Shown here one piece after another: positions 8,863 through 61,954 of a stretch of DNA of 64,000 nt (positions within the stretch are counted from its first letter, which is position 1; every line of letters begins with the position of its first letter). The notes under the pieces were generated by a model. The model made no database searches. It was not told the origin of the DNA and was given only the letters and a program-made list of their open reading frames with translations. Origin of the DNA: Candidatus Methanophagales archaeon (lineage in GTDB: Archaea; Halobacteriota; Syntropharchaeia; Alkanophagales; Methanospirareceae); NCBI GenBank assembly GCA_025966525.1, contig JAPDIG010000001.1, positions 13,435 to 77,434 of the forward strand. The letters run 5' to 3'. A program made the translations under genes and the position numbers.

Positions 8863-9661
8863 AACAATAGGGATAATAGGAAAAGGAACAGTAGGAACAG
8901 CAGTAGGTGAAGGGTTAAAATCGTTCGGTTATGAAATACTCTATCACGATAAATACAAAGAGTCATACCCGCTAAAAACGGTTGTTGAAAGAAGTGATAT
9001 AATCTTTGTCTGTGTCCCTACGCCGTGTAAAGCGAATGGCGAAATTGACTTATCTATAATTGACGAAGTAGTAGAGAACATATCCAAATATGCTGAAAAT
9101 GAGCAGAAAATCATAATCAAATCAACAGTAATACCCACAACAACTGAGCACTATCAAGAGAAATATCCACATCTCGTGTTCTTCATGTGTCCAGAATTTC
9201 TCGATGAGGATACCGCAAAATACGACTTTCTTCATCCGTTTGTGATTATTATCGGCTATACAACAAAGTCAGAAGAATATGTTGAGGACTTGATCCCTGT
9301 TTTCAAAAAATTTCGTGTACCGATTCACACTATGCACGCTACTGAAGCCGAAATGGTTAAATATATGACTAATTCATTCTTCGTGCTTAAAGTTGTCTTC
9401 GCAAATCAGATTTATGACTTGTGCACTATGCTCGGTATTGACTACTACCGCGTGAAGGATAGCTTTGTATCAAATCCGCGAGTTGGTGATAGTCATTTTA
9501 TCGTTGAGCATAAAGGTGGGAGGGGAGCAGGTGGTAAATGTTTACCAAAGGATTTATCTGCATTTATACAGTTTGCGAAGCGTAAAAACTGCCAGCTTAC
9601 ACTACTTGAAACTGCCGAGAAGATCAACTCAAAATTATTAAAACAAACAGGAAAATGTTGA
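8843..9661 (+). CDS. UDP-glucose/GDP-mannose dehydrogenase-family protein (short form)
   Basis: N-terminal Rossmann motif IGIIGKGTVGTAVG and the catalytic-cysteine motif GGKCLPKD (GGxCxPKD). At 272 aa it is shorter than canonical UgdH. Confidence 0.6.
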   Translation: MFSEKIKTIGIIGKGTVGTAVGEGLKSFGYEILYHDKYKESYPLKTVVERSDIIFVCVPTPCKANGEIDLSIIDEVVENISKYAENEQKIIIKSTVIPTTTEHYQEKYPHLVFFMCPEFLDEDTAKYDFLHPFVIIIGYTTKSEEYVEDLIPVFKKFRVPIHTMHATEAEMVKYMTNSFFVLKVVFANQIYDLCTMLGIDYYRVKDSFVSNPRVGDSHFIVEHKGGRGAGGKCLPKDLSAFIQFAKRKNCQLTLLETAEKINSKLLKQTGKC

Positions 9662-11307
9662 TTTTAGGAATCCACGACGGACACAACGCAACTGCCGCGC
9701 TTCTTAAAGATGGTGAAATAATAGCAGCCATCTCAGAAGAACGTTTGACTCGCAGAAAGAACGAACCGGGCTATCCTGTAAGGGCAATCAATAAAGTCTT
9801 AGAAATAACAGGATCTACACCTGCGGATATAGACTATGTTGCTTTAGCATCTGAGTTCTTACATCCAAAGGAGTTTTACATGGATTGGAACTGGTATAAG
9901 CGCGGCTATGAAGAAGAGCTATATGAAAAAGCAGATACAGAAGTATTTGAGCAATACAAAAACAAACGATTGGAAGAACGAAAAGAGACGATAATAGACC
10001 ATCTTGGAGTAGCAAAAGATATAATCATAGTCGTTGAACACCACTTGGCACATGCTTCTGCTGCATACTTCGGGTATGGCAAAAAGGGATGTTTAGTATT
10101 AACCCTTGACGGTTCCGGTGACGGTATCTGTGCAACCGTGAACAGAGGCTTGAACCGAATAGCGGAAACGCCTAATAGCGCCTCGATTGGTAAAATTTAC
10201 TCGCGTGTGACTTATCTACTCGGCATGAAACCCTGGGAACACGAATACAAGCTGATGGGATTAGCGCCTTATGCGAGCGAAGATGGCGTTAAGAAGTCGT
10301 ATCAGGTGCTTAAAAAACTGATAAGGGTAGATAATGGCTCTTTAGTCTTCAGGAATAACGGGCTATCTACGAATTTTTGCTACCAGTATTTGCGGAAATA
10401 TCTAGAGAACCATCGTTTTGATCATATTGCTGGTGCTGTACAGAAGCTAACTGAGGATGTCGTCTTGAATTGGGTAAGAAATGCAATGAACCACACGAGT
10501 GAGCGAGAAATAGCATGCGGTGGCGGCGTATTTATGAATGTGAAACTCAATATGCTACTTTGCGATATCGTAGATAACCTTTTTATTTTTCCAAGTTGTG
10601 GCGACGAATCTTTAGCTATCGGCGCGGCTTATTATGTCTATTACAAACACGAGAACAGAATGCCAAAGCCTTTTAATAATATCTATCTAGGACCCGAGTA
10701 CACACAAGAAGAAGTTAGCTCCTTTTGTGAGCAACTCAAGGACTATAATGTCTATAAGAGTGCGAATATCAACAAAGAAATTGCGGATTTGCTTAGCGAC
10801 GGCGAGATAGTAGCAAGGTTCAATGGGCGAATGGAGTGGGGTGCGCGAGCTCTGGGGAACAGGAGCATACTTGCGAACCCCTCAGACCTGAACAAAGTTA
10901 AGGAATTGAACATCATGATCAAAGCGCGCGACTTCTGGATGCCTTTTGCACCCACAATATTGCACGAACGGCAGCATGACTATATACTTAACGAGAAAGA
11001 AATAGAATCACCGTACATGATGGTTGCATTTAGAACAACGAAGCGTGCGAGAAAAGAGCTGGCTGCCGCTGTTCATCCTTATGATTATACTGCACGACCT
11101 CAAATTTTGAAGAGAAAAAGCAACCCGGACTATTATGACTTAATAAAGGAATTCGAGAAGATTACCGGTATCGGTGCGGTGCTAAATACTTCATTTAACC
11201 TGCATGGCGAACCGATAGTGTGTAGCTTAGAGGACGCTTTTTATACTTTCATGCGTTCGGGCTTGCAGTTCTTAGCTGTTGGTGGTTATCTAATAGAAAA
11301 AAGATAA
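9655..11307 (+). CDS. Carbamoyltransferase (NodU/CmcH family)
   Basis: N-terminal MLILGIHDGHNATAALLKDGEIIAAISEERLTRRKN and EHHLAHASAAYFGYG are hallmark motifs of the family. Length 550 aa. Confidence 0.75.
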   Translation: MLILGIHDGHNATAALLKDGEIIAAISEERLTRRKNEPGYPVRAINKVLEITGSTPADIDYVALASEFLHPKEFYMDWNWYKRGYEEELYEKADTEVFEQYKNKRLEERKETIIDHLGVAKDIIIVVEHHLAHASAAYFGYGKKGCLVLTLDGSGDGICATVNRGLNRIAETPNSASIGKIYSRVTYLLGMKPWEHEYKLMGLAPYASEDGVKKSYQVLKKLIRVDNGSLVFRNNGLSTNFCYQYLRKYLENHRFDHIAGAVQKLTEDVVLNWVRNAMNHTSEREIACGGGVFMNVKLNMLLCDIVDNLFIFPSCGDESLAIGAAYYVYYKHENRMPKPFNNIYLGPEYTQEEVSSFCEQLKDYNVYKSANINKEIADLLSDGEIVARFNGRMEWGARALGNRSILANPSDLNKVKELNIMIKARDFWMPFAPTILHERQHDYILNEKEIESPYMMVAFRTTKRARKELAAAVHPYDYTARPQILKRKSNPDYYDLIKEFEKITGIGAVLNTSFNLHGEPIVCSLEDAFYTFMRSGLQFLAVGGYLIEKR

Positions 11308-18506: not shown

Positions 18507-20160
18507 GTGAACTACCCACCTACAAGTAGGTGGGCTTCCATCTTCATCCAAGGTTCCAGCCCGGAATCATCGATGGTTCGGGCGAGTTCATCTATCGCCC
18601 CCGCCAGCTTCCGACTCCGCTTCAGAGCCGCTCTGGTCTTGTGCTTCAGATAGGTACTTGCCTTCTGAACCACTCTCACACAGGAGTTGAATTCCCGGTC
18701 GTATTGCATACCGCAGTTCGTGCACACCACGCGCCTGCCTTTCGCCTTTAATTTACCGCCACATTTGTGACATTCGCTTGAGGTGCCCCATTCGTTGAAC
18801 CGTATACCGATTATACCCCGCTCCTTTAACTTCTCTATTATGGTGTCCGCCAGCCTGCTGTAGCTCCAGTGCTGTAATATCTTCCTGCCTCGTTTATCGC
18901 CGTCGCCGCGATACTTGTGGTATCGTATCTGTTGCGGGTCGCCAATGACCACTATCTCATTCTCCGTCCCTGCGGCAAACTCTTTCGCGAGCTTACGGTC
19001 GTAATCTTCCGCCACATGCCTTCGCTTGTGCCTCAGCTTCTTCAATACGTTCCACTTCCTCAATCTTTGCAGGTGCGCTATGCGGTCATCCAACTCCCGG
19101 ATCCTCAACCACTTATCGTCGTATCGCAGCAGAGAGAAGTTTCGCGGGTGCTTCGGTAGCTTCACGGAAGCTATCGCACGTCTAACACCCAAGTCCACTC
19201 CTCTTACTGCGTGAACTGGTTGAGCGCGAACAAAATATTTACAGAGCAGATGCACGAAATACTTCTTACCGCGTTTGATTAGTTCAAACCCGCGCAGTTC
19301 CGCCGCACGCGCGAGCATTTCAAGATGCCATTTTGAGGGGTTGAGCAGTATTGTCAGCTTCTCACCCCTTTTTAAGGTTGAGATACGTATGACCAGTGGT
19401 GAGATTTTCAGATTTGATACCTCAATCGTGCCGGTTCGCGTGTCAAATCGCGTGGGTATCTTCTTCAAACTGCTCTTAGGTGATGTGCACGGCTCCGCCG
19501 GCTCACGCTTCAATAACTTCTTATACCACTTCGTGCCGGGTTTCGCGCGGCTCAGTTCACGCTCCCAGTCCTTATGCGCCTCACGATACTGCGCCCACAT
19601 CCATAGCGCCTTGTCTCGCGCCTGCTGTACGAACGCGGCACTCAACCCCGTGATGTGCTGTATCTCGCGCTCGTAAGGCGAGCAGTCCCGCTGAGTTTTC
19701 AGCCCCAGTTCGGATATGCGCTCGCACCACACCCGGACGGCGTAAGTCAGCCGCGCGGTGAGCCTGTCGAGATAGCTGAGCTTCTTGCCAGTGGTGGCGT
19801 AGTGCACCGGAATTTTGAGTGCGCGCAGGAGCTCGAAGAGTATCTTCTCCCCCGCTTCTTCCATCACCTGCACGGTTGGCTCGCCCACGACACCTGAGCA
19901 GCAATATTTTCCTCTCATGGCGACGTATATTTAATATATATTTTAGTATTTAAATATTTAATGTTGGGTATGGAGCACGAATTGACCTCTCATGGCGACT
20001 CCTCCATACCCAACCACGCTATTAAAGTATCATGCTCGATGACTGAGGCGCATTCATCACACCGTCAAGAGGTGTGTCTTCTGCGCTTTAAATCTATAAA
20101 TATTAAAATTGGTATGGCGGTTGCGAATTTAAGCATCTACACACACCCTGCCATACCATA
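18507..20160 (-). mobile_element. IS200/IS605-family insertion sequence, tnpB-only (IS1341-like); no tnpA present
   Basis: RE is ...gatggaagcccacctacttgtaggtgggtagttca at 18507-18540. LE has the hairpin cacaccgtcaagaggtgtg at about 20070-20100 and a long hairpin ggtatggc...gccatacc at 20111-20157. A single tnpB gene lies between them. Confidence 0.7.
18512..19918 (-). CDS. tnpB: TnpB (IS200/IS605 OrfB; RuvC-like RNA-guided nuclease family)
   Basis: RuvC-I-like GVDLGV, zinc finger CHKCGG...CTNCG, and a RuvC-III-like YDREFNS. Its 3' end lies inside the RE. Confidence 0.8.
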   Translation of the reverse strand: MRGKYCCSGVVGEPTVQVMEEAGEKILFELLRALKIPVHYATTGKKLSYLDRLTARLTYAVRVWCERISELGLKTQRDCSPYEREIQHITGLSAAFVQQARDKALWMWAQYREAHKDWERELSRAKPGTKWYKKLLKREPAEPCTSPKSSLKKIPTRFDTRTGTIEVSNLKISPLVIRISTLKRGEKLTILLNPSKWHLEMLARAAELRGFELIKRGKKYFVHLLCKYFVRAQPVHAVRGVDLGVRRAIASVKLPKHPRNFSLLRYDDKWLRIRELDDRIAHLQRLRKWNVLKKLRHKRRHVAEDYDRKLAKEFAAGTENEIVVIGDPQQIRYHKYRGDGDKRGRKILQHWSYSRLADTIIEKLKERGIIGIRFNEWGTSSECHKCGGKLKAKGRRVVCTNCGMQYDREFNSCVRVVQKASTYLKHKTRAALKRSRKLAGAIDELARTIDDSGLEPWMKMEAHLLVGG

Positions 20161-20196: not shown

Positions 20197-23100
20197 TCAG
20201 TCAAGAACCGTTATCGAAGCGCCTTTGGGTTCAGACTCGAATGTGACGGTTTTTGTTACTGCTCCTTTCTTCAGATACGCTTTTACTATGAAGTTACGGC
20301 AATATAACCCGTGTGCGGGCATTGAAGGTTCAGTGCCATAGCATGAAGCACCCGTTGATATGGCAGCCTCGCATGAGATACCCGAATCCGACACGGAGAT
20401 AACCATTTCTAATGTTTCATGCCCGCTAGCAACGGCTTTTATATAATGCCTGCCGTATGGGATGAGCTCGCCCGTCGCTATCTCCTTATATGTGGCGCCG
20501 GCAATATCATAAGGCTTGTAATAGAATGTTGCACTGATATAAGAACCGTCGGTGCCTGAATATGCCGATAAGTATATATATGCAGCCTTACACACTTTCA
20601 CAACCGTTGTTTCGTTTGCTTTCACATCCACAGAGAACGCACATGATGGTGAGAAGCAACGGTCAAGTATATCCACATAGCAATGATTGAATTCGCCTTC
20701 CTTACCTACTACCTCTACCGTATGTGGACCTGCGGGCACTGTCGCTGTTACTGCCGAGCCACCACCTTTATCAACACCGTCAATAAGGAAAGTTTCAACA
20801 TCACACGGCTTCTTAAACACGATTGACTCGAAAGTCATTATGGTTAGTTTGCCCTCAGGTGGCGGCGTTGTCACTACTTTAGCGGTGATTTTATGCGTTG
20901 CTGTCCCACAATTTGGCGGAGTTGCATTGTTACACGCTTCCAGGCGAATACCCCATACTCCAACCTTGTCAAAAGTATGAGTTATCGTCTTACCTGTCTT
21001 TTCGGTTTCAATACCGTCAGGGTCACTAATCGTCCATGTCCACGAAGTGACTTTATATGGGTCTTCGGTAGACGCCATGCCGATTAGGGTTGCCGACTCG
21101 CCGACGTTGACGGTGTTGGGAGCGATAATCCTTACATTTTTCACCGCTGGTGGCGCACCTGGACATACGGGGAAAGTATCTCTACCGGTATCCGAACCAG
21201 CATAATAAGCATAGATCATGTCAGCATCGTTACTTGTCACTTCACCATCGTCATCAACATCCGCCCGCTCCTTGAATTCCGACTCCGATAATCCTCCTAC
21301 TTTATCTTTAACGGCACCCCAGCCGAGTTCTACATAATCCATAACGAGTTTTGCATCCTCGTCTGTAACATAATTATCGGGGTCGTTGTTAACATTACCG
21401 TAGTTACCGCAGGGCGATTTTCTGTATTCGTACGCTTTTGAGACAGTAATTGTCCTGTGCACATCGATTGTTCCCGCACAGATTTTGAGATGTACCTCGT
21501 AACTGCCGGCTTCTGTGAATGTGTGTGTAACCACCCGTCCAGTCTTTTTGACATCGTGCGGGAACACCCATTCCCAATCAGTTATTTCTGAATCGTCACA
21601 GCCTTTTGCATGACCTTCAAAAGTCGCTTCTACACCTACTCGCACGCTTTCACGTGCTCCTGAATAATAATTGAACCATGCTCCCGTTGCCGGACATGGC
21701 TTTCTCCACTTGGGGTCCCATATCCTTGTCTTTTTAAGTCTTGCTGAGTTCTCAGCATTAACATATTCATCTTTTATCTTGTTATTGGTAGCATCCCAAA
21801 CATGTTTATTTTTATCATAGACGAATAGAACGGCATAACCTTCCTTCAGCTCTTCTATGCCAATATTTGTTGTACCTTTAAAAACAGCAGCTATCAAGCG
21901 AGGAGTTTTGTGTTTTAAGTCCCATTGTCTCTCGCTGTCGGACTTCAATGTAATATTTGTGCCGACAGGAAGCATATTAGCAAGCCATGCATTCGCTCGA
22001 GCATAAAACACGCTATCAACATACCAGAGTTCCTCGGATATACATTCCTCGCCGGGTGTTACTAACCGCCTGACAAGCCACGGCTCCTTCTTCTTCGTGC
22101 ATATATAAACATAGTCTGGTCCTTCTGGACTGTTTATACCTACAATGCGTACGCAATATGGCGTACCAGCATGCCGAATATGTATAGTATCGGCATCTTT
22201 GTGCTTAAGCACAGTTGCTGTTATCACTTCATTTAATTCTGGCACATAAACATCTGGTGGCCATCCTCCCGGCGGCTCTAGTGGTGCTATACAGCCTGCG
22301 CTTCGAACAGCAAAGGTATATTCATTACGATATACTGACCATGCTGTACGCACTTGATTACGCATGAATTCGTTTGGTTCACCTATCGAAACGCCATACA
22401 ATGTTGCATACAAGTTTATTGCCTCATTACGCTTGGTAGGATCAACAGCGTCAGCAATGTTCTTAAGTCTTTCTAACTCTTCAAGCATGGCTATATAATC
22501 ACGCTGAACTGTGGGGTCACAGGGGTTGTCTCGTATTTGGAATCCCAATGTCTTTAGCTTATCCTCTACAATCGCAAACTGCTCGCCAAAAGTTTTCTCG
22601 ATAACTCCTGCTTTACGCCCCACATAAACATTCATCACTAAATTGTCTAAAATATACCAAGTGCCACAGAACGCAGCAAAGCCTAATGCACCTGCAAGTA
22701 TTGGATGTTTCTTAATCTTAGCAAGGAGCCCTTTTTCTAGTTGCTTGCCAGTCTTTATTGCACCTGTAGCAAATCCTCTTGCTATGTCTATTTGAGCACT
22801 TAAAGCGGTCTTTGCTAGTTCATTCGCTATCTCCTCACTAGCTCCTGTGGCGATAGCGCGTTCGTATATATCGTCATACATAGCTTTTCCGTATAGCCAG
22901 AACAATCTATTCAATTCAGCAGTCTCTTCTATTGAGTCCAGTCCCAACGCATTGAAAACTTCTTCACCGCGTTTATCGCCAAGAACTTTTTTAAACTCCT
23001 CACGCAAGTTCTTGAACCAGTTCCTTCTTTCCGTTGCCTCCTCTGGAGTGAGTGGTTTAATATGCTTAGCAATTTCATCTGGATCATCAAAATGCTCAAA

Positions 23101-26100
23101 CTTTTTCATCAAAGCGTTAGAGTATCCCTTTTTAAAGAATTCGGGGTCTTTTAGTATCACATATCTAAATAATTCGCTTGGGTCCGCATATCTACCCTCT
23201 TTGTCTAGTTTCCTAGCAATCTTATCTATCGTGCCAGCATCTAACAGCTTTTTCAACTCATCAGTAGTTAACACATCAGAAATGTCTTTCGGTGCTTTAC
23301 GCCAAGGCATCCTGTTCTTTATACCTGCCCATATACTTCTCCAGAAGTCGTGTCCAAACCCAGAACCGGCAGCAGACTTGTTTGTTAGCTCTTTCCAAAA
23401 ACCTAGCAGGCTGTTTCTATGCTTTAAAAGTACTTCAAAAGTTTTTTTATCCGCAGGTAGTCCAGCTAGGTACTCAAAATACCCTAAAACTTCTTTATTC
23501 TTACCGGCAGCGAGTAGTTCGTTTATTTGCTTAACATCTTCAGGTTTCATGGCAGCTATTGCCATGAAAGTCTTTTTATATCCTTTTTTCGTTGTATCTA
23601 GCGTGAAACCCGCGTCGTATAACGCTTTTGTAAATTCAAACAAGTCTAATGTTTCACCATCTATTATTAGTTTTCCATCTTCTGCCAACCCTACTATCTG
23701 GTTTAGCTTGCACCAATGGCCTGGGCTACAAACGGCATCTGCCGCCTTTATGAACACTGTTATATTTTTTGTTCTATCACCATACCGCAATGTGTAGATA
23801 TACGCGGGATATGCCTCGTCTAATAGTCTTGCGTACGCATCAGGCCAATCGTGAAGCCTCTCTAAAGCATTACGATATGCTGAATACGCCCCTGTCCCCT
23901 CATACATAGCTTCGAGTCGTTCAAGATCAAAATACGCTAGTGCATCGTCGATCTCTTCTGCGAAATCTTCAACATTTCGTGCTGTTACCGTGCCTATATT
24001 CCATACATCATCAAGCATACCAGCGGCAACATCTAAATCACCATTTCTTAAATAAGATATATACTCGTCTTTCAAATCGTCAGATGCCACGCGCCAAAAA
24101 TACCAGAATTTTTCTTCACTGAACGCATCACGAACGATTTGCTTGATCTCCTCGTCAGCATAAGCGGCAATTTCACTAAACATCAGCCCAGTCTCCGAAA
24201 AGTCACCAACACGGTGTGCTCTATTAAAAGCCGTTATTATTAATCCATATTCGTCTACGGTAGGCTCAGCTATATTGCCAGCTATATCCTTACCATATTT
24301 AACCTTTTGGTATGCATCGAAAAAAGTACCATACGCTTCTGCTCTCTTCGCAAGCTCGAATGCGCCATCCCAATTGTTATACAACACATTTGCTAATCTT
24401 TTTGCGTTTCCATACCGTATATCGGCATAACCAATTTCAGCAAGCACTGACCTTGCAGTATCCTTTATGGCTTTTTCCAGATCAGCAATCTCTTTCGCCT
24501 GCTTAGGATCAATATTCTTAATCTGCTTCTCAAGCTCATCCAGCCACCGATTGAACTTATTTATCGCTTCCCAATCTTCAATTGCAGGATTTCTAAGGAT
24601 GGCTTCTCCCAATTCTTTAGCTCTTTCTATGTCACCATCAGCAATCGCTTTCGCCCATAAATCCAATTTCGCTTCGTCGCCATACACCAGTATTCTATAA
24701 GCCTCTGTTGGATTTGCCTCTATGAATTCTCTAACCGCAGCAACATCATCACCGTGCTTAACGCCCTTCCTTATGATTTTGCCCAGATATTTCGTTATCT
24801 TACCGCCCGGTACCATCGGTAATACTGAACACACCACAACTATCGGGAACATAGCGAGCTCGAACGCATCGGGATGGTACTCTGCACCGTATATGTCCTT
24901 ACCCCTGATAACCCCAGAAATCACATCTGCACAATATATCGGGTCCAGCATCTCTGCCCAGAATCGGCGGCACTCGTCTGAATCCTTTGGTATGCCCATG
25001 AGCTCACAAGCTTCACCAAAGACTCCATAACGAGAGTAAAGATATATGTCTTTCGTACCCTCAAACTTGCCGCACCAGACAGGACCGGTAGGTAAAAATC
25101 CTTTTGCTATATTCGGTCCTATACCATAGGTTTCTCCTTCTACTAGCCCATCATCTTTTGTAAATACTACCTCACCATCCGGGTATTTATCCGGCTTTTT
25201 TTCGTGTATATCCGTCCCCGGCGCTGGTATAAAACATCGTGACCACGCATATGCACGCCTGCATAGCACTGTATCCCCTTCTTTAAACCCTTTCGTGTGT
25301 ACAATAAACTTATCCTCCTCCGTGATTGGTCTAAGCGTGAACTCGAACTCATAAGTGCCTTCTCCTTCGCCATTCCCGCCCTGACGCCGCGTTGTCTTGA
25401 CTTCTGTCCAATCCTCATGCATATCACTATTCAAATACCCCGGCTTGCCCGCTATGAATCCGTATCTACAAGCCGCTCCGGGCAGTGATGGCAACCCTAT
25501 GCTAAGGACGCCTTCATCATCGGTCTTGAGAAGGTTACCATAGCCTTTCCAGCTCTCGGTAGTGCATACCCCTTTATGTACCGTTATGTCAGAGCAGGGT
25601 ACTTCCTGCCATGTGCCTTCAAAAATCTCTTTCGTAACGCTTACATACGCATGTTCTATACCATTCCCTTCCTCGTCCTTTACTGTTGTCCTTATTTCGT
25701 ATGGCGATTGCGCTTGCGTTTCAAAATCAAACTCATCATCAGACGGGCAGCCCTGTATAATCTGTCCGTCTTTGATATGGAAGCTATAATCTTTACCATA
25801 ATCCATATCAACATTGCAATCCAAAAGGAACTGTTCGGATTCATCTGTACCCAATGTTATAGAACTAGTTTCGATACCTATTGTATTCTCGGTACTGCAG
25901 CCTTTACCCTCGCGCAGCCACAGACAGCGCTTATCCGAAGCACCACCCATGTTCTTTATTATTATCTTGAACAGTGGGCGTTTGCAATCGCCTAAGTCTA
26001 TTGTACCACCTTCCGTAACGCCCCAAAAGGTTATACCATTGTCCGTGCTATAATACACTTCTTTAATCTCAAGCTTGGGTGGGGGTGTTGTCACAGTTAT

Positions 26101-27111
26101 CGTAAAAGTGCATTCAGACTCTTTATAATCAGCATCACCCTTAAACTTCGCCTTAATCGTTGCCGTCTCCTCTACACTGCATGTATATGTGATAGAACAC
26201 TTACCTTCGGGATTCGTAGCACACGAACCTATGCTGACTTCTGTGCTATCCACTAACTTATAGAACTCTATCCACCTGCCATCAAGCGGTCTTTTCGGTG
26301 ATATTGCATCTGTCAAAAGCACTTCTAAATCTACCGTATCGCCAACAGTGGCAGTCTTATGTGGATCTATGCATGTCAGTTCTGTATACGCCTTTGGTAG
26401 CTGAACCCTAAGATGAATAGCATCCGTCGTGTCGTGAGTATAACATGTCCCACCCTCGTATGAACCACAATGTAATACTGCATCTTTGTCTGATGAGGGC
26501 ATACTGAAAGTGCAATCCGGCATACGCACCCACGATTTACCTGCATCTATATCTTTCGTCTTCGGACCACAACGATAATAGTTGCCCCATACAACACCGT
26601 AGCAGGCTGTGCCTGATACATTATTTGTGTTCCTCACCCACGCTCTTGCGGTCAGCGTAGCACCAGCTGGCGCTCTAAGTGTAGAGCCAGGCTTATACAC
26701 ATGGCCGTTGTACCATATATACGCATAATTAAATTTGTATTCTGGTAGTGGCTTACCTATTTCGATAGTCCACGAATATTTCGTTTCCTTGAGCTCGCCT
26801 TGTCTATCAGGATCACCTAACCACAGCTCCACTTTTGCCGTGCCTGATTTGCTCGGTGTGCATCCGATTGCTGGTAATTTCTTTGTCTGGTCTTTGCACG
26901 GTACTGTATCGAACCGTCTGCAAACTTCTGTCGAGTCTATCAGTAGCCGGACTGTTACACTTATTTGGCTAACCTTTGTGTATGTGCACCGGACTTTTGC
27001 ATGTAGCCAAAAAGTTTCGCCAGCGGTAACTGTGATCGTACTTCCTAAGTTATATCGCTTGCCCCCGTAATAGATATATGGGTCCTCATCGAATTTTACC
27101 GTTCCAGGCAT
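20197..27111 (-). CDS. Giant (2304 aa) multi-domain cell-surface protein with Ig-like/PKD domains, a dockerin-type Ca-binding repeat and an embedded staphylococcal-nuclease-like (SNase) domain
   Basis: SNase motifs HKDADTIHIRHAGTPYCVRIVGINSPE and DLKHKTPRLIAAVFKGTTNIGIEELKEGYAVLF. PKD-like WEWVFPHD...THTFTEAGSYEVHLKI. Dockerin-like DVDDDGEVTSNDADMIYAYYAG. Two hydrophobic segments, and a long Lys/Glu/Ala-rich helical middle region. Confidence 0.65.
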   Translation of the reverse strand: MPGTVKFDEDPYIYYGGKRYNLGSTITVTAGETFWLHAKVRCTYTKVSQISVTVRLLIDSTEVCRRFDTVPCKDQTKKLPAIGCTPSKSGTAKVELWLGDPDRQGELKETKYSWTIEIGKPLPEYKFNYAYIWYNGHVYKPGSTLRAPAGATLTARAWVRNTNNVSGTACYGVVWGNYYRCGPKTKDIDAGKSWVRMPDCTFSMPSSDKDAVLHCGSYEGGTCYTHDTTDAIHLRVQLPKAYTELTCIDPHKTATVGDTVDLEVLLTDAISPKRPLDGRWIEFYKLVDSTEVSIGSCATNPEGKCSITYTCSVEETATIKAKFKGDADYKESECTFTITVTTPPPKLEIKEVYYSTDNGITFWGVTEGGTIDLGDCKRPLFKIIIKNMGGASDKRCLWLREGKGCSTENTIGIETSSITLGTDESEQFLLDCNVDMDYGKDYSFHIKDGQIIQGCPSDDEFDFETQAQSPYEIRTTVKDEEGNGIEHAYVSVTKEIFEGTWQEVPCSDITVHKGVCTTESWKGYGNLLKTDDEGVLSIGLPSLPGAACRYGFIAGKPGYLNSDMHEDWTEVKTTRRQGGNGEGEGTYEFEFTLRPITEEDKFIVHTKGFKEGDTVLCRRAYAWSRCFIPAPGTDIHEKKPDKYPDGEVVFTKDDGLVEGETYGIGPNIAKGFLPTGPVWCGKFEGTKDIYLYSRYGVFGEACELMGIPKDSDECRRFWAEMLDPIYCADVISGVIRGKDIYGAEYHPDAFELAMFPIVVVCSVLPMVPGGKITKYLGKIIRKGVKHGDDVAAVREFIEANPTEAYRILVYGDEAKLDLWAKAIADGDIERAKELGEAILRNPAIEDWEAINKFNRWLDELEKQIKNIDPKQAKEIADLEKAIKDTARSVLAEIGYADIRYGNAKRLANVLYNNWDGAFELAKRAEAYGTFFDAYQKVKYGKDIAGNIAEPTVDEYGLIITAFNRAHRVGDFSETGLMFSEIAAYADEEIKQIVRDAFSEEKFWYFWRVASDDLKDEYISYLRNGDLDVAAGMLDDVWNIGTVTARNVEDFAEEIDDALAYFDLERLEAMYEGTGAYSAYRNALERLHDWPDAYARLLDEAYPAYIYTLRYGDRTKNITVFIKAADAVCSPGHWCKLNQIVGLAEDGKLIIDGETLDLFEFTKALYDAGFTLDTTKKGYKKTFMAIAAMKPEDVKQINELLAAGKNKEVLGYFEYLAGLPADKKTFEVLLKHRNSLLGFWKELTNKSAAGSGFGHDFWRSIWAGIKNRMPWRKAPKDISDVLTTDELKKLLDAGTIDKIARKLDKEGRYADPSELFRYVILKDPEFFKKGYSNALMKKFEHFDDPDEIAKHIKPLTPEEATERRNWFKNLREEFKKVLGDKRGEEVFNALGLDSIEETAELNRLFWLYGKAMYDDIYERAIATGASEEIANELAKTALSAQIDIARGFATGAIKTGKQLEKGLLAKIKKHPILAGALGFAAFCGTWYILDNLVMNVYVGRKAGVIEKTFGEQFAIVEDKLKTLGFQIRDNPCDPTVQRDYIAMLEELERLKNIADAVDPTKRNEAINLYATLYGVSIGEPNEFMRNQVRTAWSVYRNEYTFAVRSAGCIAPLEPPGGWPPDVYVPELNEVITATVLKHKDADTIHIRHAGTPYCVRIVGINSPEGPDYVYICTKKKEPWLVRRLVTPGEECISEELWYVDSVFYARANAWLANMLPVGTNITLKSDSERQWDLKHKTPRLIAAVFKGTTNIGIEELKEGYAVLFVYDKNKHVWDATNNKIKDEYVNAENSARLKKTRIWDPKWRKPCPATGAWFNYYSGARESVRVGVEATFEGHAKGCDDSEITDWEWVFPHDVKKTGRVVTHTFTEAGSYEVHLKICAGTIDVHRTITVSKAYEYRKSPCGNYGNVNNDPDNYVTDEDAKLVMDYVELGWGAVKDKVGGLSESEFKERADVDDDGEVTSNDADMIYAYYAGSDTGRDTFPVCPGAPPAVKNVRIIAPNTVNVGESATLIGMASTEDPYKVTSWTWTISDPDGIETEKTGKTITHTFDKVGVWGIRLEACNNATPPNCGTATHKITAKVVTTPPPEGKLTIMTFESIVFKKPCDVETFLIDGVDKGGGSAVTATVPAGPHTVEVVGKEGEFNHCYVDILDRCFSPSCAFSVDVKANETTVVKVCKAAYIYLSAYSGTDGSYISATFYYKPYDIAGATYKEIATGELIPYGRHYIKAVASGHETLEMVISVSDSGISCEAAISTGASCYGTEPSMPAHGLYCRNFIVKAYLKKGAVTKTVTFESEPKGASITVLD

Positions 27112-27114
27112 CTC

Positions 27115-28050
27115 TCACCATCCATGAAGTTTTGGCGTGTTCTCAAATTTATATTCACCTTCCCTCATTATAAAGAATTCAGTCTCATCAATCTTATCCT
27201 TCAGTGGCTCAAGCTTCTTCCGTAGCCAGTAATACCGCTTCTCCGCATTCCTTAACTTGCTTTTCCATTCCCACGGCCACTCCTTTTCTATTAATCCTAT
27301 CACATGGTTCCACACCTCTGAATTGAAGACATTGAGATAAATGCCCTCCATCCTTGAATCGACATACCCGCGTGTGCTCTCAGCTGGCCATCCCTGCTTG
27401 AAATAGTGCCCCACAACCGCGTCTTTATCAATCAGGCAGGGATGTCCCAAACGCCACAGCCGTATCCCATATTCCTCCTCCCAACCCAGTCCACGATGAG
27501 TCCACAAAAAACCACCATAACTGTCCAAGTGTTTAAAAGTCGCTGGAGTCATTGCGAATGCGCACCCGCAGGTTGTGGGCACGGGAAAGATAGTTTCGTC
27601 TTTCGGTGAGGGCAGCCATACCCACTCGAACGGGTGTTTAACGAACTTGAACGCTACTCCGTGCCCAAAACCGCCACTCGGCTCGCACGAAGGGAATTGC
27701 ACCACCTGTATAGCGGGTCCCACTGCCGCTTCGGGATGGCTCCACAGCGTGTCCATCCATCTCTCTATCGCTTCTGGTGTGAAACATGTATGACAGTCGA
27801 GAAAAATCAATGCTTTCGAGTAATGTGCCGCGTTACGCGCTCCCACATTACGCGCTTGACCGCAGCTTTCTATGCTGCCTATCACTTTCACCGGGAAGTT
27901 CGCCAGTTCCCTAACCCACATCATGTCAACTCCCGGCTCACCAACGACAAATATGAGCTCTTTTTCAGCTGGCACTTGTGAAATCTGCTGCAACATCTTC
28001 TCGATAAACTCCCTATCCTCTTTGTATTCTTGCACAATGAAGGAGATCAT
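27115..28050 (-). CDS. GT2-family (GT-A fold) glycosyltransferase
   Basis: N-terminal Rossmann-like ELIFVVGEPG and the DxD-like FLDCH. The gene ends 3 bp before the giant gene, in an operon-like arrangement. Confidence 0.55.
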   Translation of the reverse strand: MISFIVQEYKEDREFIEKMLQQISQVPAEKELIFVVGEPGVDMMWVRELANFPVKVIGSIESCGQARNVGARNAAHYSKALIFLDCHTCFTPEAIERWMDTLWSHPEAAVGPAIQVVQFPSCEPSGGFGHGVAFKFVKHPFEWVWLPSPKDETIFPVPTTCGCAFAMTPATFKHLDSYGGFLWTHRGLGWEEEYGIRLWRLGHPCLIDKDAVVGHYFKQGWPAESTRGYVDSRMEGIYLNVFNSEVWNHVIGLIEKEWPWEWKSKLRNAEKRYYWLRKKLEPLKDKIDETEFFIMREGEYKFENTPKLHGW

Positions 28051-28068: not shown

Positions 28069-28893
28069 TTAATGCATGTGGTAAAAATAAATATTGTTCC
28101 ATTCGAAATCAGGTGTCCACCCATCAAATGTAAAATGCCTGCTAATGACTCGTGCACCACGCTTGAGATTCTCCTCCAGTAAAGGTTTTATTATCTGATT
28201 CACACTTTGGAGAAGATAGAGATAGACGCAATCTGCTTTGGCTATATCCTGAGCCACATTCATAAAACTCTCTTCTTTAATTGTTACAGGTAACCCCTTC
28301 GTGTTCTCTCTCGCCTGTTCTGCACGCTCATGGTTGAGTTCATAGCCTATGCATTTCGCACCGAACTCAGTTGCTGCTATTTTTAAATTCCTGCCATCAC
28401 CGCAACCCAGCTCTACGAAAATCTCGCCCGGCTTCAGGTTTACCTTTTGCAATGCTGTTCTTATTTCATCTTCAGGTGTTGGAACATATACAACACACTC
28501 GTTATCTTGGCACTCACCAGACCATGTGACATGGTAATGGCAGTGAGTGATGCCCGCCGGGAATTTCAATGTGATTGTTATTGGTACACCGTTCAAATCG
28601 CCTCTATACACAAGTTTTGTTGGATATTTTTCAAACGCAAACAGATCAAAAGGTGCATGTAGCTTATCTCGTAATAGCCACTCGAACTCAGCGGTATAGT
28701 TATTATCAGTCTTCGTGATGTGGTCTGTGATAATCTCCTCGCTGCGGGTTGCGCTGTCGTAATATCTAAGTGTTGTGCCTTCAGCAGTCACTGTGATAGT
28801 GCGTGCTGTGCCAGTTCTCGCAGATTCTCCTTTTCGCTCTTCCACTCCCTCGCGCATCTCGCGTAAGATGCGCGAAATGAGATTCTCCTCCAT
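28069..28893 (-). CDS. Class I SAM-dependent methyltransferase with an N-terminal unknown domain
   Basis: Motif I VELGCGDGRNL, and ADCVYLYL as a post-I acidic/hydrophobic motif. Confidence 0.5.
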   Translation of the reverse strand: MEENLISRILREMREGVEERKGESARTGTARTITVTAEGTTLRYYDSATRSEEIITDHITKTDNNYTAEFEWLLRDKLHAPFDLFAFEKYPTKLVYRGDLNGVPITITLKFPAGITHCHYHVTWSGECQDNECVVYVPTPEDEIRTALQKVNLKPGEIFVELGCGDGRNLKIAATEFGAKCIGYELNHERAEQARENTKGLPVTIKEESFMNVAQDIAKADCVYLYLLQSVNQIIKPLLEENLKRGARVISRHFTFDGWTPDFEWNNIYFYHMH

Positions 28894-28904
28894 CTTTCTG
28901 CGGA

Positions 28905-29552
28905 CTAATAACGGGATTTAATCACAAAAGCTTCCTCACCAAGAGTAGCGTTCGGCGTTCCTTGGTAGGTGGCTGAGTTCGCATTATGACGCATCCATGC
29001 AGCCATAACCTCAGCGAAGTTATCGTATCTTCTATTTTCATATTCCGTTGCATATTCACGGCACAGTGCTTGGAACGCTTCCCATGCCTGGTGGATTGTA
29101 TAGCCCTCTAATAGCGAAAGTAAAGGCACTGATAGTGTCCTGACAAAATCAGATAGATATGCATGTTTTTCTGATGACTGTGGAAGGAATACGAGATTGC
29201 GGAACCCGAAATACGCCTTTGCACCACGCGATGCCGCGGTTAATGCTAACCAGTTACCACTCTCACACGCTATCGCTATGAATATCGAACCACTAACATA
29301 GTCTATGTTATCATCATCGAATATCGCCCTACCGTCGCTGCCTATTAATGCCCGCTCTTTGCCGTGTCCACTAAACAGTATCAGCTCATACTTCTTGTCC
29401 TTCGGAAGGTTTTTCCGCCTCGCATCCCCACCCTCTAAAGAATCTACCTCAAAAGCTTCCGCCTCTAATGCTTCTATACAGACATGGGCGAGTATGGACG
29501 CCGCTTCCAATACTTTACTGCCTTCGTATGGCGTTATCACCAATGCACGCAT
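28905..29552 (-). CDS. Caspase-like (His/Cys dyad) protein, a putative C14/CHAT-type peptidase
   Basis: ILFSGHG (His-Gly) followed about 34 residues later by IAIACESG (Cys), resembling the caspase/metacaspase catalytic dyad. Assigned by motif only. Confidence 0.3.
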   Translation of the reverse strand: MRALVITPYEGSKVLEAASILAHVCIEALEAEAFEVDSLEGGDARRKNLPKDKKYELILFSGHGKERALIGSDGRAIFDDDNIDYVSGSIFIAIACESGNWLALTAASRGAKAYFGFRNLVFLPQSSEKHAYLSDFVRTLSVPLLSLLEGYTIHQAWEAFQALCREYATEYENRRYDNFAEVMAAWMRHNANSATYQGTPNATLGEEAFVIKSRY

Positions 29553-29560
29553 TTTTGTTT

Positions 29561-29974
29561 CTACGCTTCAATCCCCACTTCTGCAAGTTTTACTTTCACG
29601 CTCTCTATCCTTATCCTCCTACCCTCCTCCGTCACCGGCGTGAATCTGCCTTCATCATCAAGTATCTTCGCCTGCACGGGCTGGTAAATCTGTCCAAACA
29701 TCAGTAACTGGTAGCGTCTGCCGGCAGGCACAACAACCCTAAACTCACCGTTCATGTCCGTGCTCGTCTCCGCTACCACATTATTGCCCGCCTCATCCAT
29801 TATCTTTATCGGCGCCGCAAAAATCGGCTCGCCAGTCTCAGAATCTATTGCTATTCCTTCTATTACCGCCTTCTTCTCTTCCCCCATTTTTCCTACAATA
29901 AGCATTATGTAAAAAATAAAATAAAAACTTTTCTCGTCAATACCGTTTCCACTTAGTTTTATACTTGCGCGCAT
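29561..29974 (-). CDS. Carboxypeptidase-regulatory-domain-like / Ig-like beta-sandwich protein
   Basis: GIAIDSETGEPIFAAPIKIMDEAGNNVVAETSTDMNGEFRVVVPAG matches the CarboxypepD_reg-like pattern. Confidence 0.4.
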   Translation of the reverse strand: MRASIKLSGNGIDEKSFYFIFYIMLIVGKMGEEKKAVIEGIAIDSETGEPIFAAPIKIMDEAGNNVVAETSTDMNGEFRVVVPAGRRYQLLMFGQIYQPVQAKILDDEGRFTPVTEEGRRIRIESVKVKLAEVGIEA

Positions 29975-30245
29975 CCAAGCGTACCATTAAAAGCCACTCC
30001 ACTTTTTTCACCTTGTGTTTTTCACGCCACTCTCTCAGTTTTTTCAAGAATCCCCGTGTGCTATTCGTTTTCACTTGCACAAAATCTATCTCACTACCGT
30101 CCGGCGAAATCGCAAGAAAATCGAACATATTAAAAATATCTTGTGTGCCGTATTTCGACACTTTCTGTGGCTTGTATACTAACCAGCCCCGGTGCTCATA
30201 TTCCTGCACTGCTTCTCGTTCGTGCAGGCTACCTTTCCTGCTCAT
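29937..30245 (-). CDS. Holliday-junction-resolvase (Hjc)-like PD-(D/E)xK nuclease
   Basis: KGSLHEREAVQEYEHRGW...DFLAIS...IDFVQVKT follows the Hjc arrangement of G-S-x-x-E-R-E, D and E-V-K motifs. Confidence 0.45.
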   Translation of the reverse strand: MSRKGSLHEREAVQEYEHRGWLVYKPQKVSKYGTQDIFNMFDFLAISPDGSEIDFVQVKTNSTRGFLKKLREWREKHKVKKVEWLLMVRLDARKYKTKWKRY

Positions 30246-36129: not shown

Positions 36130-37500
36130 GAACTACCCATCAATGAATTGATGGGCATCTGATTCATGAAGGGACGACATCCTTCGCCCTCCATGTCAGC
36201 GGTGCGTCCACAACACCAATACTCCTCGAGATATTCCTCTCTTGGAGATACTTCTTCAGTATGTTCAGCGCCGCATTCACATCCGCATTCAGCTCCGCTC
36301 CACAGCTTTTGCATACATACAGACCTCTATACTTGCGGTTCGCTCTCCTCACGGCGCCGCAAACCGAACAGGTCTTACTCGTGTCTCGCTCACTGACTTT
36401 TTCAAATCGTATGCCAGATAGTTTCGCTTTGTATTCTATCTGCGTCAGGAGCTTAGCAAAAGCCCACGCGTGGAGCTTCTGGTTGCCTCGCCTCCCACAG
36501 TTCTTACCTCGCCTTATGTTCTTCACATCACCACATACTATTGTCCCCACATTATTCCTCTTTGCTTCTTCTACCACTTCCTTTGATACCATGTGGATAA
36601 TCTGGTTAATTTGTCTTCTTTTTCTTTTATGCATGTTCGTAATTGCTTTGCTTCCTCTTTTATTATATTGCTTCATCGTTTTTGATTGCACCTTCGCTAT
36701 CTCTTTATTGAAATAATGCTGAACCGCGAGAGCCAACCTGCCGGAATATATGGTTGAATTCCCTTTTGTATCCACTGTAACGGCAAGATTTATTATCCCT
36801 ATATCCACAGCCATTATCTCAGGACTATCTTTCAGCGGCACTTCCGGTATCTCATACACCACATGTGCCATCCATTTCCCACTCTCATAAAGGATATTGC
36901 ACATCTTCGGGATACCTTCTATCTCACGCCAGTTATTGATCTTCAGATGGAGTTTATCCACCCCCTCTTCCGCTCTGAATTTCCTCGACATTACGAGCGT
37001 GATTGTATCTCCCTCTATTGAGAACTGTTGATAAAATGTGAGAGGACTTAGCTTATTCTTCTTTCGGAAACCGGGTGGTTTCGCATTCGGGTCTTCTTTC
37101 CGCAAGTGGAACCATGAATTATAATTATCTTGCAAGTTCTTGATAATCGCCTGCGCCGTCTGAGAAGGTAAGAGTTTATACCAGTGGTTGTCCTTCAGTT
37201 TCTTCTTTTGCTCGTACCAGTCGGGTATTTTACCGGTCTGTGCCCATATCTCTCGCCTTTGCCAGTTATCGGTATTATACAATTTCGTCGCATAATAACC
37301 AAGCTTCCTCAGTAACTTCTCTTGCTCATCTGTTACTTCAATCCGATACTTTACTGTTAGTTTCATCTCTGCGCCACACTATTTATTTATATGTTTTTAT
37401 TATATAAAAAGTTTTAAGGTATAGGTGGGGAGAGATTTAATCATCTCTGCGCCACCCCCACCTATACCCGCACCCCGCCCTAAAGGGCGGTGGGGATGTC
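36130..37500 (-). mobile_element. Second IS200/IS605-family tnpB-only element (diverged from the first)
   Basis: RE gtgaactacccatcaatgaattgatgggcatc at 36126-36160 has the same tgaactaccca-plus-palindrome organisation. LE-side hairpins ggtataggtgggg...ccccacctatacc and ccgccctaaagggcgg lie at 37420-37500. Confidence 0.55.
36164..37366 (-). CDS. tnpB: TnpB (IS200/IS605 OrfB family)
   Basis: VDIGIINLAV (RuvC-I), zinc finger CSVCG...CKSCG, and DVNAALNI (RuvC-III). Confidence 0.75.
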   Translation of the reverse strand: MKLTVKYRIEVTDEQEKLLRKLGYYATKLYNTDNWQRREIWAQTGKIPDWYEQKKKLKDNHWYKLLPSQTAQAIIKNLQDNYNSWFHLRKEDPNAKPPGFRKKNKLSPLTFYQQFSIEGDTITLVMSRKFRAEEGVDKLHLKINNWREIEGIPKMCNILYESGKWMAHVVYEIPEVPLKDSPEIMAVDIGIINLAVTVDTKGNSTIYSGRLALAVQHYFNKEIAKVQSKTMKQYNKRGSKAITNMHKRKRRQINQIIHMVSKEVVEEAKRNNVGTIVCGDVKNIRRGKNCGRRGNQKLHAWAFAKLLTQIEYKAKLSGIRFEKVSERDTSKTCSVCGAVRRANRKYRGLYVCKSCGAELNADVNAALNILKKYLQERNISRSIGVVDAPLTWRAKDVVPS

Positions 37501-49962: not shown

Positions 49963-50201
49963 AATGGTATATAAATATTTATATAGACATGAAGCATATC
50001 ATTAAGTGATGATGCTTTGGGGCATGCCCCGGGGCGGATGGGCGCCTGACCCGCCCAGATGCGGTCTACCGCAACCGAAGTTCCCATGTTGGGAACCTCC
50101 CTGCTTTAGCGGGGAGAGGAGGTCAGCGTTTATTATCTGCCGATGTAACTCCAGTTCGTTTTTCGCACCCACATAACCCATTGAATTTATAAAATAGTCG
50201 C

Positions 50202-61720: not shown

Positions 61721-61954
61721 ATGCCAAAATGCCCGAAATGTGGGAAAGAGATAGACTATCTAAGGGATCTCATGTTGGAAGAATTCAAATTGACAGTTGA
61801 CGAGAACGGCTATGTTCATTACGAGCTTGTTGACGCTTCGGTTCTTAATCGTGGCGATGAATATAAATGCCCCAAATGCTCTGCGCTTCTATTCAGAGAT
61901 GAGAAAGAAGCGGTAAAGTTCCTCAGGGGCGAAACATCACAAAAACGAGAGTAG
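61721..61954 (+). CDS. Zinc-ribbon protein
   Basis: MPKCPKCGKEIDY...KCPKCSALLF. Confidence 0.4.
   Translation: MPKCPKCGKEIDYLRDLMLEEFKLTVDENGYVHYELVDASVLNRGDEYKCPKCSALLFRDEKEAVKFLRGETSQKRE

Follow-up and report, generated by a model that had tools for sequence, protein, structure and literature searches.

As a small gene with a caspase-like His/Cys motif lies close to a nuclease-like gene in this stretch of archaeal DNA, the locus raises the question of whether it encodes a defence system or a protein-processing function. The four ORFs named in the preliminary description were recovered at the same coordinates on the minus strand, in the coding-strand order Hjc-like protein, Ig-like protein, protease and methyltransferase. 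They lie in a window of 64 kb (the whole stretch of DNA that was analysed) from a Methanophagales MAG (ANME-1, methane-oxidising archaea), and the window is a virus-like mobile element. The window encodes a D5-like primase-helicase, three TnpB genes, homing endonucleases, a tail-fibre-like beta-helix protein and a protein of the phage family phrog_1362, and holds no tRNA or housekeeping genes. At least 30 proteins of this window and of related loci were screened with Pfam and PHROGs; none matched a capsid, portal or terminase, and the only matches were of tail-fibre-like and tape-measure-like coiled-coil type. As none of these hallmarks was found, the status of the element as a virus is unproven, and it could be plasmid-like or integrative in nature.

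The caspase-like protein and its family

The 215-aa protein (28905..29552, minus strand) is a putative minimal, stand-alone cysteine peptidase of clan CD (gingipain/C25-like). The motifs SGHG and IACESG read exactly as first reported, namely as S61-G62-H63-G64 and I94-A95-C96-E97-S98-G99, with the codons of the putative catalytic residues His63 and Cys96 at 29364-29366 and 29265-29267, respectively. As G62, H63 and C96 were the only invariant columns in an alignment of 42 homologues (25% mean column identity, with identity down to 21%), the His/Cys motif exceeds chance at the level of sequence. The protein reads LILFSG-H63-G and IFIAIA-C96, where His-Gly and then Ala-Cys each end a hydrophobic beta strand, and this is the clan CD signature of His-Gly and Ala-Cys placed behind hydrophobic strands. 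In the predicted structure, strand 57-61 precedes His63 and strand 90-94 precedes Cys96. The GHG of the family profile aligned to His211 of RgpB, and the ungapped register from His211 puts C96 on RgpB Cys244, the His-Cys spacing being 33 residues in both proteins as counted on the aligned RgpB fragment.

When PDB was searched from sequence alone, neither the protein itself nor profiles A1 and A2 yielded more than marginal matches, and the fold was therefore established through structure prediction. The caspase fold suspected for 28905-29552 was borne out by the model, which is an alpha/beta/alpha sandwich of the clan CD type whose central sheet has five strands in parallel and one antiparallel. 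According to the same model the 215 residues form one caspase-like domain followed by a helical C-terminal region. The protease carries no signal peptide and is thus cytoplasmic, and sensor domains such as SAVED and TPR are absent from it. From its sequence features the protein is predicted to be a catalytically active clan CD cysteine protease.

The His-then-Cys order had initially been likened to caspases, metacaspases and CHAT peptidases alike. The family proved C25-like, whereas none of the 42 family members matched Pfam CHAT (PF12770) at E≤0.1 or Pfam C14, and the p20/p10 architecture and Peptidase_C14 match that mark the caspase/metacaspase family C14 were lacking. Against Pfam Peptidase_C25 the window protease scored 13.2 bits (E 0.051), below the gathering threshold of 23 bits, and matches at E<0.1 were obtained in 16 of its 42 relatives, the best at 2.3e-6. 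By sequence it is hence a remote relative of C25 that stands outside the family by the curated threshold.

The family around it comprises no fewer than 722 clusters (50% identity), counted as cluster representatives at E≤1e-3, which are mostly stand-alone proteins of 200-250 aa; a second homology search (A2) added few further distant members. No relative of the protease was recovered from IMG/VR by scans with A1 and the distant-clade alignment A5, and neither the protease nor the giant protein of its operon had a tblastn match in deposited phage and archaeal-virus genomes. The family is missing from Pfam at threshold, from PHROGs and from PADLOC, and a full-text literature search returned no description of a minimal family of ~215 aa. 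This ~215-aa protease family is new and uncurated within a known clan.

Conserved and exchangeable neighbours

The protease belongs to a run of five co-directional genes separated by 8 nt (beta-sandwich stop to protease start), 11, 18 and 3 nt (GT2 stop to giant-gene start). The first gene of this operon encodes a single-domain CarboxypepD_reg/transthyretin-like beta-sandwich protein. The mechanical ORF 29561-29974 (137 aa) contains the CarboxypepD_reg domain (Pfam E 8e-6), in agreement with the carboxypeptidase-regulatory-like label given earlier. As the homologues begin at an internal Met, the true gene is most likely shorter, 29561..29887 on the minus strand, and would encode 108 aa. Its orthologues of ~80-108 aa are mutually homologous by BLAST, and they start and finish with beta strands, with no N- or C-terminal extension.

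The preliminary description had made conservation of the neighbourhood a test of its proposal, and the outcome differed between the beta-sandwich gene and the Hjc-like gene. The beta-sandwich gene lies directly upstream of the protease in 25 of the 26 distinct loci with upstream sequence, including all ANME-group loci and five distant ones (L013, L015, L016, L018 and L021) in which the protease is only 23-33% identical. The Hjc-like gene, however, adjoins the pair only within a shallow clade in which the protease is at least 79% identical, and it is missing from the flanks of all deeper relatives (protease ≤67% identical).

The Hjc-like gene (29937..30245, minus strand) encodes a small, putatively PD-(D/E)xK-type protein of 102 aa and is an upstream neighbour outside the conserved module. 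It has no direct Pfam match and matches YraN weakly (E 0.09). However, ORF12 of the Halorubrum spindle-shaped virus BLv25, with which it shares 42% identity (pairwise E 4e-16), passes Pfam Hjc (PF01870) with 24.3 bits against a cut-off of 21.1, and the Hjc-like label proposed before is thus supported transitively only. The motif reads E9...D36...Q57-V-K59, with Q in place of the E of Hjc, and QVK is common to BLv25 ORF12. The Hjc-like gene was the only one found to be shared between the window and BLv25, as the automatically called window proteins, a set that does not include this ORF, gave no tblastn match to the virus. Between the Hjc-like and Ig-like genes lies an AT-rich spacer of 49 nt (29888..29936, minus strand; …AAAAGTTTTTATTTTATTTTTTACATAATGC…) with oligo-T tracts and a TATA-like box, which may act as a terminator/promoter boundary. 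A divergent gene (L004) or a gap of 210-260 nt (L009, L010 and L012) lies ahead of the Ig-like gene in the deeper relatives, an arrangement consistent with this gene heading a transcription unit.

Downstream of the protease, the 274-aa ORF (28069-28893), first taken for a two-domain SAM methyltransferase, consists of two separate parts of which only one is a methyltransferase. Residues 1-125 form a conserved domain of another kind, here called domain X (28519..28893, minus strand; ~125 aa, the N-terminal half of the ORF). In alignment A3 it has an invariant H58 and an invariant H117-C118-H119-Y120-H121, and these residues are possibly a metal site. Only five close homologues of the domain were retrieved. 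Its AF2 model was unusable (pLDDT 49.6). In most relatives domain X is a stand-alone protein of 122-136 aa; it follows the protease in this form in L009, L010 and L012, and as a 200-aa version in L004.

The remainder of the ORF, residues 137-274, holds a class I SAM methyltransferase domain of aKMT/DOT1-like type (28069..28485, minus strand), closest to archaeal protein-lysine N-methyltransferase. Residues 151-261 matched NCBIfam NF041081 with E 1.2e-21 and 77.3 bits, which is below the 200-bit equivalog cut-off, and by sequence NF041081 is thus its nearest family at the domain level but the protein is no equivalog. Pfam matches were to DOT1 (2.9e-7), Methyltransf_25 (7e-8) and CMAS. Fusion of domain X to the methyltransferase is confined to a close clade (L008, L023 and L026-L029) and does not occur in L004, L009, L010 and L012. 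The fourth gene encodes a GT2-like glycosyltransferase of 311 aa (27115..28050, minus strand; Pfam Glycos_transf_2 E 9.5e-4, below cut-off), which is 29% identical (E 2e-35) to a GT2 of L001. As an accessory gene it varies between loci: the window, L023, L024 and L031 have it, and it is missing from L008, L026, L027, L028 and L029. Elsewhere, radical SAM enzymes or different GT2s take the place of the methyltransferase domain and GT2.

The last gene (20197..27111, minus strand), which lies just beyond the region covered by the preliminary description, encodes a giant protein of 2,304 aa, a candidate substrate or cargo. It has N-terminal Ig-like (Big_1) repeats, one strongly hydrophobic segment at aa 748-770 in a hydropathy scan and a long helical middle. 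Pfam further places in it an SNase-like domain (aa 1699-1799), a pair of PKD domains and a type I dockerin (aa 1912-1967), and its C-terminal region is rich in beta structure. Wherever an ANME-group locus extends far enough (L001, L004, L008, L009, L010, L012 and L026-L030), a homologous giant protein is encoded downstream of the protease, and the length of this conserved protein spans 1,660-2,304 aa. In the ANME-group loci domain X and the giant protein are kept downstream while the enzymes between them change. The evolutionarily stable partners of the protease are the small beta-sandwich protein, domain X and the giant protein. In distant loci small unknown proteins and helicases come after the protease pair and the giant protein is absent, so that it cannot be a universal substrate. 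One distant family member stands alone in a bacterial chromosome.

Proposed role and alternative explanations

The protease probably serves in protein processing rather than in immunity, and its most likely role would be that of a two-component processing protease for surface or virion proteins of the element. The 215-aa protein would act as a catalytically competent minimal clan CD endopeptidase, and the beta-sandwich protein would probably bind and serve it as a partner encoded in trans, comparable to the in-cis Ig-like domain or the inhibitory pro-domain of gingipains. Domain X is a putative adaptor or metal-binding domain within the operon, which also holds interchangeable protein-modifying enzymes (lysine-methyltransferase-like, GT2 and radical SAM/SPASM). 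Site-specific processing or maturation would be directed at surface or virion proteins, and the giant Ig/PKD/SNase/dockerin protein would be the first candidate. That the C25-like mini protease and its beta-sandwich partner mature such element-encoded proteins, with the giant protein as prime candidate, is a reading that we hold with moderate confidence. The fold, the invariance of the dyad, the gene order and the setting on a mobile element are established by the analysis, whereas peptidase activity, a complex with the beta-sandwich protein and the choice of substrate are inferred.

The peptidase, aimed by its beta-sandwich partner, may instead cut immune effectors or surface/S-layer components of the host, in the manner of a host-takeover or counter-defence factor, and not proteins of the element. 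Some viruses are known to cleave host factors with their own proteases. The retention of the protease pair without the giant protein in many unrelated-looking mobile-element backbones fits a generic portable function, and the cytoplasmic location that follows from the missing signal peptide also speaks for this explanation. We nevertheless regard it as unlikely, since the ANME-1 gene shares a very tightly spaced operon with genes for protein-modifying enzymes and for a giant adhesin-like protein and does not lie among small genes of early or anti-defence type, and the searches showed no resemblance to known anti-defence proteins.

A more ambitious version of the maturation role appears to us rather doubtful. 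It supposes that the beta-sandwich protein and the mini clan CD enzyme make up an unrecognised two-component maturation machine of archaeal viruses and mobile elements, either a new class of spike/virion maturation protease or a sortase-like transpeptidase. With domain X and the exchangeable modifying enzymes, it would process and decorate giant dockerin adhesins, which would plug into the ANME-1 cohesin/dockerin surface network for attachment. Slightly more doubtful again is a transpeptidase or ligase like PorU, GPI8 or legumain-type enzymes, which would cut a target and join it covalently to another molecule, for example by linking the beta-sandwich protein or a GT2 glycan to the host surface or the giant protein; no terminal extension suited to sorting or ligation is present in the beta-sandwich proteins.

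A role in defence or abortive infection, originally suggested by a caspase-like protein lying near a nuclease, is not supported and is very unlikely. It would have the caspase-like effector and the Hjc-like nuclease, perhaps with the methyltransferase, kill or arrest the infected cell. PADLOC matched neither the protease nor the beta-sandwich protein nor the nuclease, no family member matched CHAT or C14, no sensor or signalling domain was detected, and no CRISPR, CBASS or cyclase genes lie near the protease. At a protease identity of ≤67% no locus keeps the nuclease adjacent, and the terminator/promoter-like spacer splits it from the Ig-like and protease genes. The methyltransferase is nearer to protein-lysine methyltransferases (1.2e-21) and is replaced elsewhere by radical SAM enzymes or GT2, while the stable partners look structural and the locus lies in a virus-like element rather than a host defence island. 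A caspase-like gene next to a nuclease does not by itself make a defence system. Least probable of all is a pseudo-protease acting as a caspase-fold scaffold or assembly chaperone, as in c-FLIP or the caspase-like domain of Raptor, since the dyad and the adjacent Gly are the sole universally invariant residues, a pattern expected for catalysis rather than for a scaffold.

Comparison with known systems

Clan CD proteases are well known, but we did not find the minimal ~215-aa family, its near-obligate pairing with a CarboxypepD_reg protein or its setting on archaeal mobile elements described or curated. If the pair does mature the giant dockerin surface protein, it would offer a first handle on the attachment apparatus of elements of uncultured methane-oxidising archaea, and archaeal virology would gain a protease class.

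The CHAT proteases of defence systems, SAVED-CHAT of CBASS and TPR-CHAT/Csx29 of type III-E CRISPR, differ from the window locus, which has no SAVED or TPR domain, cyclase or Cas7-11 and in which the conserved neighbours of the protease are structural or modifying proteins. Metacaspases and orthocaspases (C14) and the caspase-like proteins of giant viruses have a p20/p10 organisation that is lacking here; the giant viruses infect eukaryotes, and a counterpart in archaeal viruses was not found. PorU (the C25-like T9SS sortase), GPI8 and legumain-type enzymes are clan CD members that act on large surface proteins, which they process and are able to join to other molecules. The window has no secretion-system genes and no recognised sorting signals, and the likeness to these enzymes is conceptual, in that genes for a giant adhesin and for glycosyltransferases accompany the protease gene, as the sequence comparison was limited to C25.

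The gingipains RgpB and Kgp of Porphyromonas gingivalis (MEROPS C25, clan CD) have a catalytic domain of ~350 aa with two subdomains, compared with 215 aa for the whole window protein. The window protease is without the two-subdomain catalytic domain, and also without the signal peptide, pro-domain, in-cis IgSF domain and T9SS C-terminal domain, by which C25 is recognised. Gingipains carry their Ig-like domain in cis, whereas on this archaeal mobile element the beta-sandwich is encoded by a separate gene.

Protease fold and operon context

An ORF scan of 28069-30245 gave four ORFs, all on the minus strand, which in coding order encode a 102-aa Hjc-like protein (29937-30245), a CarboxypepD_reg-domain protein (ORF 29561-29974), a putative protease of 215 aa (28905-29552) and a 274-aa protein (28069-28893). 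Outside the coordinates of the preliminary description the same block continues on this strand with a GT2-like gene (27115-28050) and the gene for a giant protein of 2,304 aa (20197-27111), and the five genes from the CarboxypepD_reg gene to the giant gene are separated by gaps of 8, 11, 18 and 3 nt. As CarboxypepD_reg homologues start at 'MAIIEG…' and the ORF has an ATG at 29887 with a purine-rich stretch upstream, the predicted gene is most likely 29561-29887 (108 aa). The 49-nt AT-rich spacer between it and the Hjc-like gene contains oligo-T runs and a TATA-like box, and probably represents a terminator/promoter boundary.

The protease carries the motifs F-S-G-H63-G and I-A-C96-E-S-G, exactly as first quoted (SGHG, IACESG). 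A word-indexed search retrieved 30 homologues, none with a Pfam domain, and an exhaustive HMMER search yielded 722 cluster representatives at E<=1e-3, mostly stand-alone proteins of 200-250 aa. An identical protein comes from a Methanophagales (ANME-1) MAG, where it is encoded on a contig of 82 kb, and one relative carries the automatic name 'CHAT domain-containing protein'. Among known structures the listed values were 17.0 for RgpB, 16.6 for Kgp, 16.1 for SAVED-CHAT, 14.3 and 14.0 for metacaspase-9 and metacaspase-4, 12.9 for separase, 12.8 for legumain-type enzymes, 12.5 for MALT1 and 11-12 for caspases, whereas flavodoxin-like folds reached about 8. Foldseek gave the same picture, with RgpB (1cvr) as the top match of the model (E 8.8e-6, TMq 0.62) and flavodoxins lower (TMq 0.3-0.4), so that the proposed caspase-like fold was upheld against a flavodoxin-like one. 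In a viral structure library the only neighbours were caspase, metacaspase and clostripain-like proteins of giant viruses, together with a single uncharacterised protein from a myovirus.

In the predicted structure His63 lies directly after strand 57-61 and Cys96 directly after strand 90-94, and G62, H63 and C96 are the only invariant columns of a 42-sequence alignment reaching down to 21% identity (25% mean column identity). Pfam Peptidase_C25 was matched by 16 of these members (best 2.3e-6), C50 by one and CHAT or C14 by none. The family profile aligned GHG onto RgpB His211, and the ungapped register, counted on the printed fragment, puts Cys96 on RgpB Cys244 with a His-to-Cys spacing of 33 residues in both. 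The 215-aa protein thus very probably has the fold and dyad of a clan CD peptidase, and is predicted to work like one, nearest to the C25 gingipains. Several distant members of 240-280 aa (P0042, P0047, P0050, P0057, P0063, P0070 and P0083 in alignment A2) have a C-terminal hydrophobic tail, absent from the window protease, which suggests that some versions are membrane-anchored.

Neighbouring proteins and their conservation

The protein beside the protease, earlier labelled Ig-like, is by Pfam a single CarboxypepD_reg/transthyretin-like beta-sandwich domain. The 274-aa protein, described as a two-domain SAM methyltransferase, does have two domains, of which only residues 137-274 form a class I SAM methyltransferase; their best match was NF041081, the model for archaeal protein-lysine N-methyltransferase (E 1.2e-21, under the equivalog cut-off), and they also matched Pfam DOT1. 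Residues 1-125 (domain X; 28519-28893, minus strand) matched no family and gave an unusable AF2 model (pLDDT 49.6). Domain X is a separate protein of 122-136 aa in relatives and is kept between the protease and giant genes; in its alignment (A3), H58 and a C-terminal H-C-H-Y-H are invariant, which suggests a putative metal site. The 102-aa protein has no direct Pfam match. Its sole match among deposited viruses is ORF12 of Halorubrum spindle-shaped virus BLv25 (42% identity, E 4e-16), and that ORF passes the Pfam Hjc threshold. The Hjc-like label therefore has transitive support. Both proteins carry Q-V-K where E-x-K is canonical, so that the motif here reads E…D…QVK. The same observation covers L017 (5565-5957).

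We collected 38 loci, compared them by tblastn and grouped them by protease identity to the window. The 12 distinct loci at 79% or more, the window among them, have the order Hjc-like, Ig-like, protease, fusion of domain X with the methyltransferase, GT2 at some of the loci, and giant protein. At 43-67% (L001, L004, L009, L010, L012, L030, L036 and L039), the Ig-like, protease and domain X genes are followed by radical SAM/SPASM, GT2, DUF483 or nothing, and then the giant protein; in the L001/L039 clade GT2 genes take the place of domain X, and the sequenced flanks of this group hold no Hjc-like gene. At 23-33% (L013, L015, L016, L018 and L021) the pair alone persists, with a homologous CarboxypepD_reg protein of 79-90 aa directly upstream of the protease (one small ORF intervening in L015) and small unknown proteins and helicases after it. 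At about 22-24% (L019/L020, 6001-6642) the protease stands alone, with no recognisable CarboxypepD_reg neighbour, on contigs of 34-107 kb (up to 178 kb on record) with FtsH, DivIC, trehalose synthesis and other housekeeping genes nearby. These contigs look bacterial and chromosomal, which places family members outside archaeal mobile elements as well.

Across all groups, 25 of the 26 distinct loci with upstream sequence have the beta-sandwich gene before the protease, and each of the 12 ANME-group loci sequenced far enough downstream has the giant protein after it. The beta-sandwich/protease pair is the ancient unit, with domain X and the giant protein as later additions in the ANME-1 lineage and the modifying enzymes interchangeable. 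The nuclease, found beside the protease only at 79% identity and above, became its neighbour recently and lies outside the predicted transcription unit.

The mobile element

The window is a virus-like mobile element, not host chromosome. It has no tRNA genes and dozens of small ORFans, and its likely replication protein is an 820-aa primase-helicase (PrimPol, CHC2 zinc finger, D5_N and DUF5906; 50202-52664, minus). Three TnpB/Cas12f-like genes (OrfB_IS605 and TNB) are scattered on the minus strand (18512-19918, immediately downstream of the giant gene, 36164-37366 and 48832-49962). The window also encodes LAGLIDADG/HNH homing endonucleases, with LAGLIDADG-type genes at 2879-3670 and 61937-62920 (both minus); in related loci NUMOD3, LAGLIDADG and HNH genes are inserted within the protease-to-giant operon (e.g. 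L012, 12306-13181). A Ro60/TROVE and vWA protein (39297-41012, minus) had no Y-RNA-like partner from Rfam at gathering thresholds. The region between a TnpB gene and the primase-helicase gene contains an Rfam HgcC family RNA (50037-50139, plus; 60.9 bits against a gathering score of 50, E 2e-11), which runs antisense to a 67-aa ORF. A 357-aa protein (41487-42560, plus) belongs to phrog_1362 (E 1e-44), a family of unknown function from 244 deposited phage genomes, mostly mycobacteriophages, and is 63-92% identical in related elements L004, L008 and L009. A cluster with a 520-aa methyltransferase-domain protein and a NodU/CmcH-type carbamoyltransferase (6356-11307, plus) and a 714-aa pectinesterase-like beta-helix protein with tail-fibre PHROG matches (725-2869, minus) suggest glycan modification and receptor binding. 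Related contigs encode recombination-directionality-factor-like (Gp3-like) proteins, NUMOD3 and LAGLIDADG nucleases, helicases, GINS and ParB. Genes for a capsid, portal or terminase were looked for and not found, and the protease family has no relative in IMG/VR or in deposited phage or archaeal-virus genomes.

Proposed function and known systems

The invariance of the dyad argues for catalysis, predicted here as peptide cleavage, and the beta-sandwich protein, in view of its close and ancient pairing with the protease, would be a functional partner; supplied in trans, it may be analogous to the IgSF domain or the inhibitory pro-domain of gingipains. In the ANME-1 group the protease shares one operon with enzymes of protein-modifying types (lysine-methyltransferase-like, GT2 and radical SAM/SPASM) and the giant protein, which argues that the operon would build and mature the latter. 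Besides Big_1-like Ig repeats and two PKD domains, this giant protein has an SNase-like domain at aa 1699-1799, a type I dockerin at aa 1912-1967 and a single strongly hydrophobic segment at aa 748-770, and it lacks a signal peptide. As ANME-1 hosts are reported to encode many cohesin/dockerin proteins (PMC9012536), its dockerin could dock the element protein onto host surface scaffolds. On the basis of the dyad, the partner and the operon, we favour processing or maturation of surface or virion proteins encoded by the element as the role of the protease. Taken whole, this reading has about an even chance of being correct; the assignment of the substrate is more tentative.

A protease directed at the host or its defences is the strongest of the rival readings but unlikely, and a transpeptidase or ligase resembling PorU, GPI8 or the legumain ligases is less probable still. 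The defence or abortive-infection module proposed initially now appears very doubtful, as the protease, nuclease and beta-sandwich partner have no PADLOC match, the 42 family members have no CHAT match, sensor or signalling genes are not present and the nuclease link is evolutionarily shallow. Least credible is a pseudo-protease scaffold, against which the invariant dyad argues.

The clan CD fold is familiar and the function inferred; the cassette is widespread, and is tied to a striking giant protein with a dockerin, within a host lineage known for extensive cohesin/dockerin proteins (PMC9012536). A full-text literature search found no account of a protease of this kind in archaeal viruses or in elements of ANME-1, and the ANME-1 publications consulted make no mention of caspase-like proteins. 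Its nearest relatives are the C25 gingipains, although it scores too low for the curated C25 threshold and does not have the C25 architecture, and by sequence it is not a member of the CHAT or C14 families. It represents a new, uncurated clan CD family of minimal size whose two-gene architecture is conserved in archaeal mobile elements.
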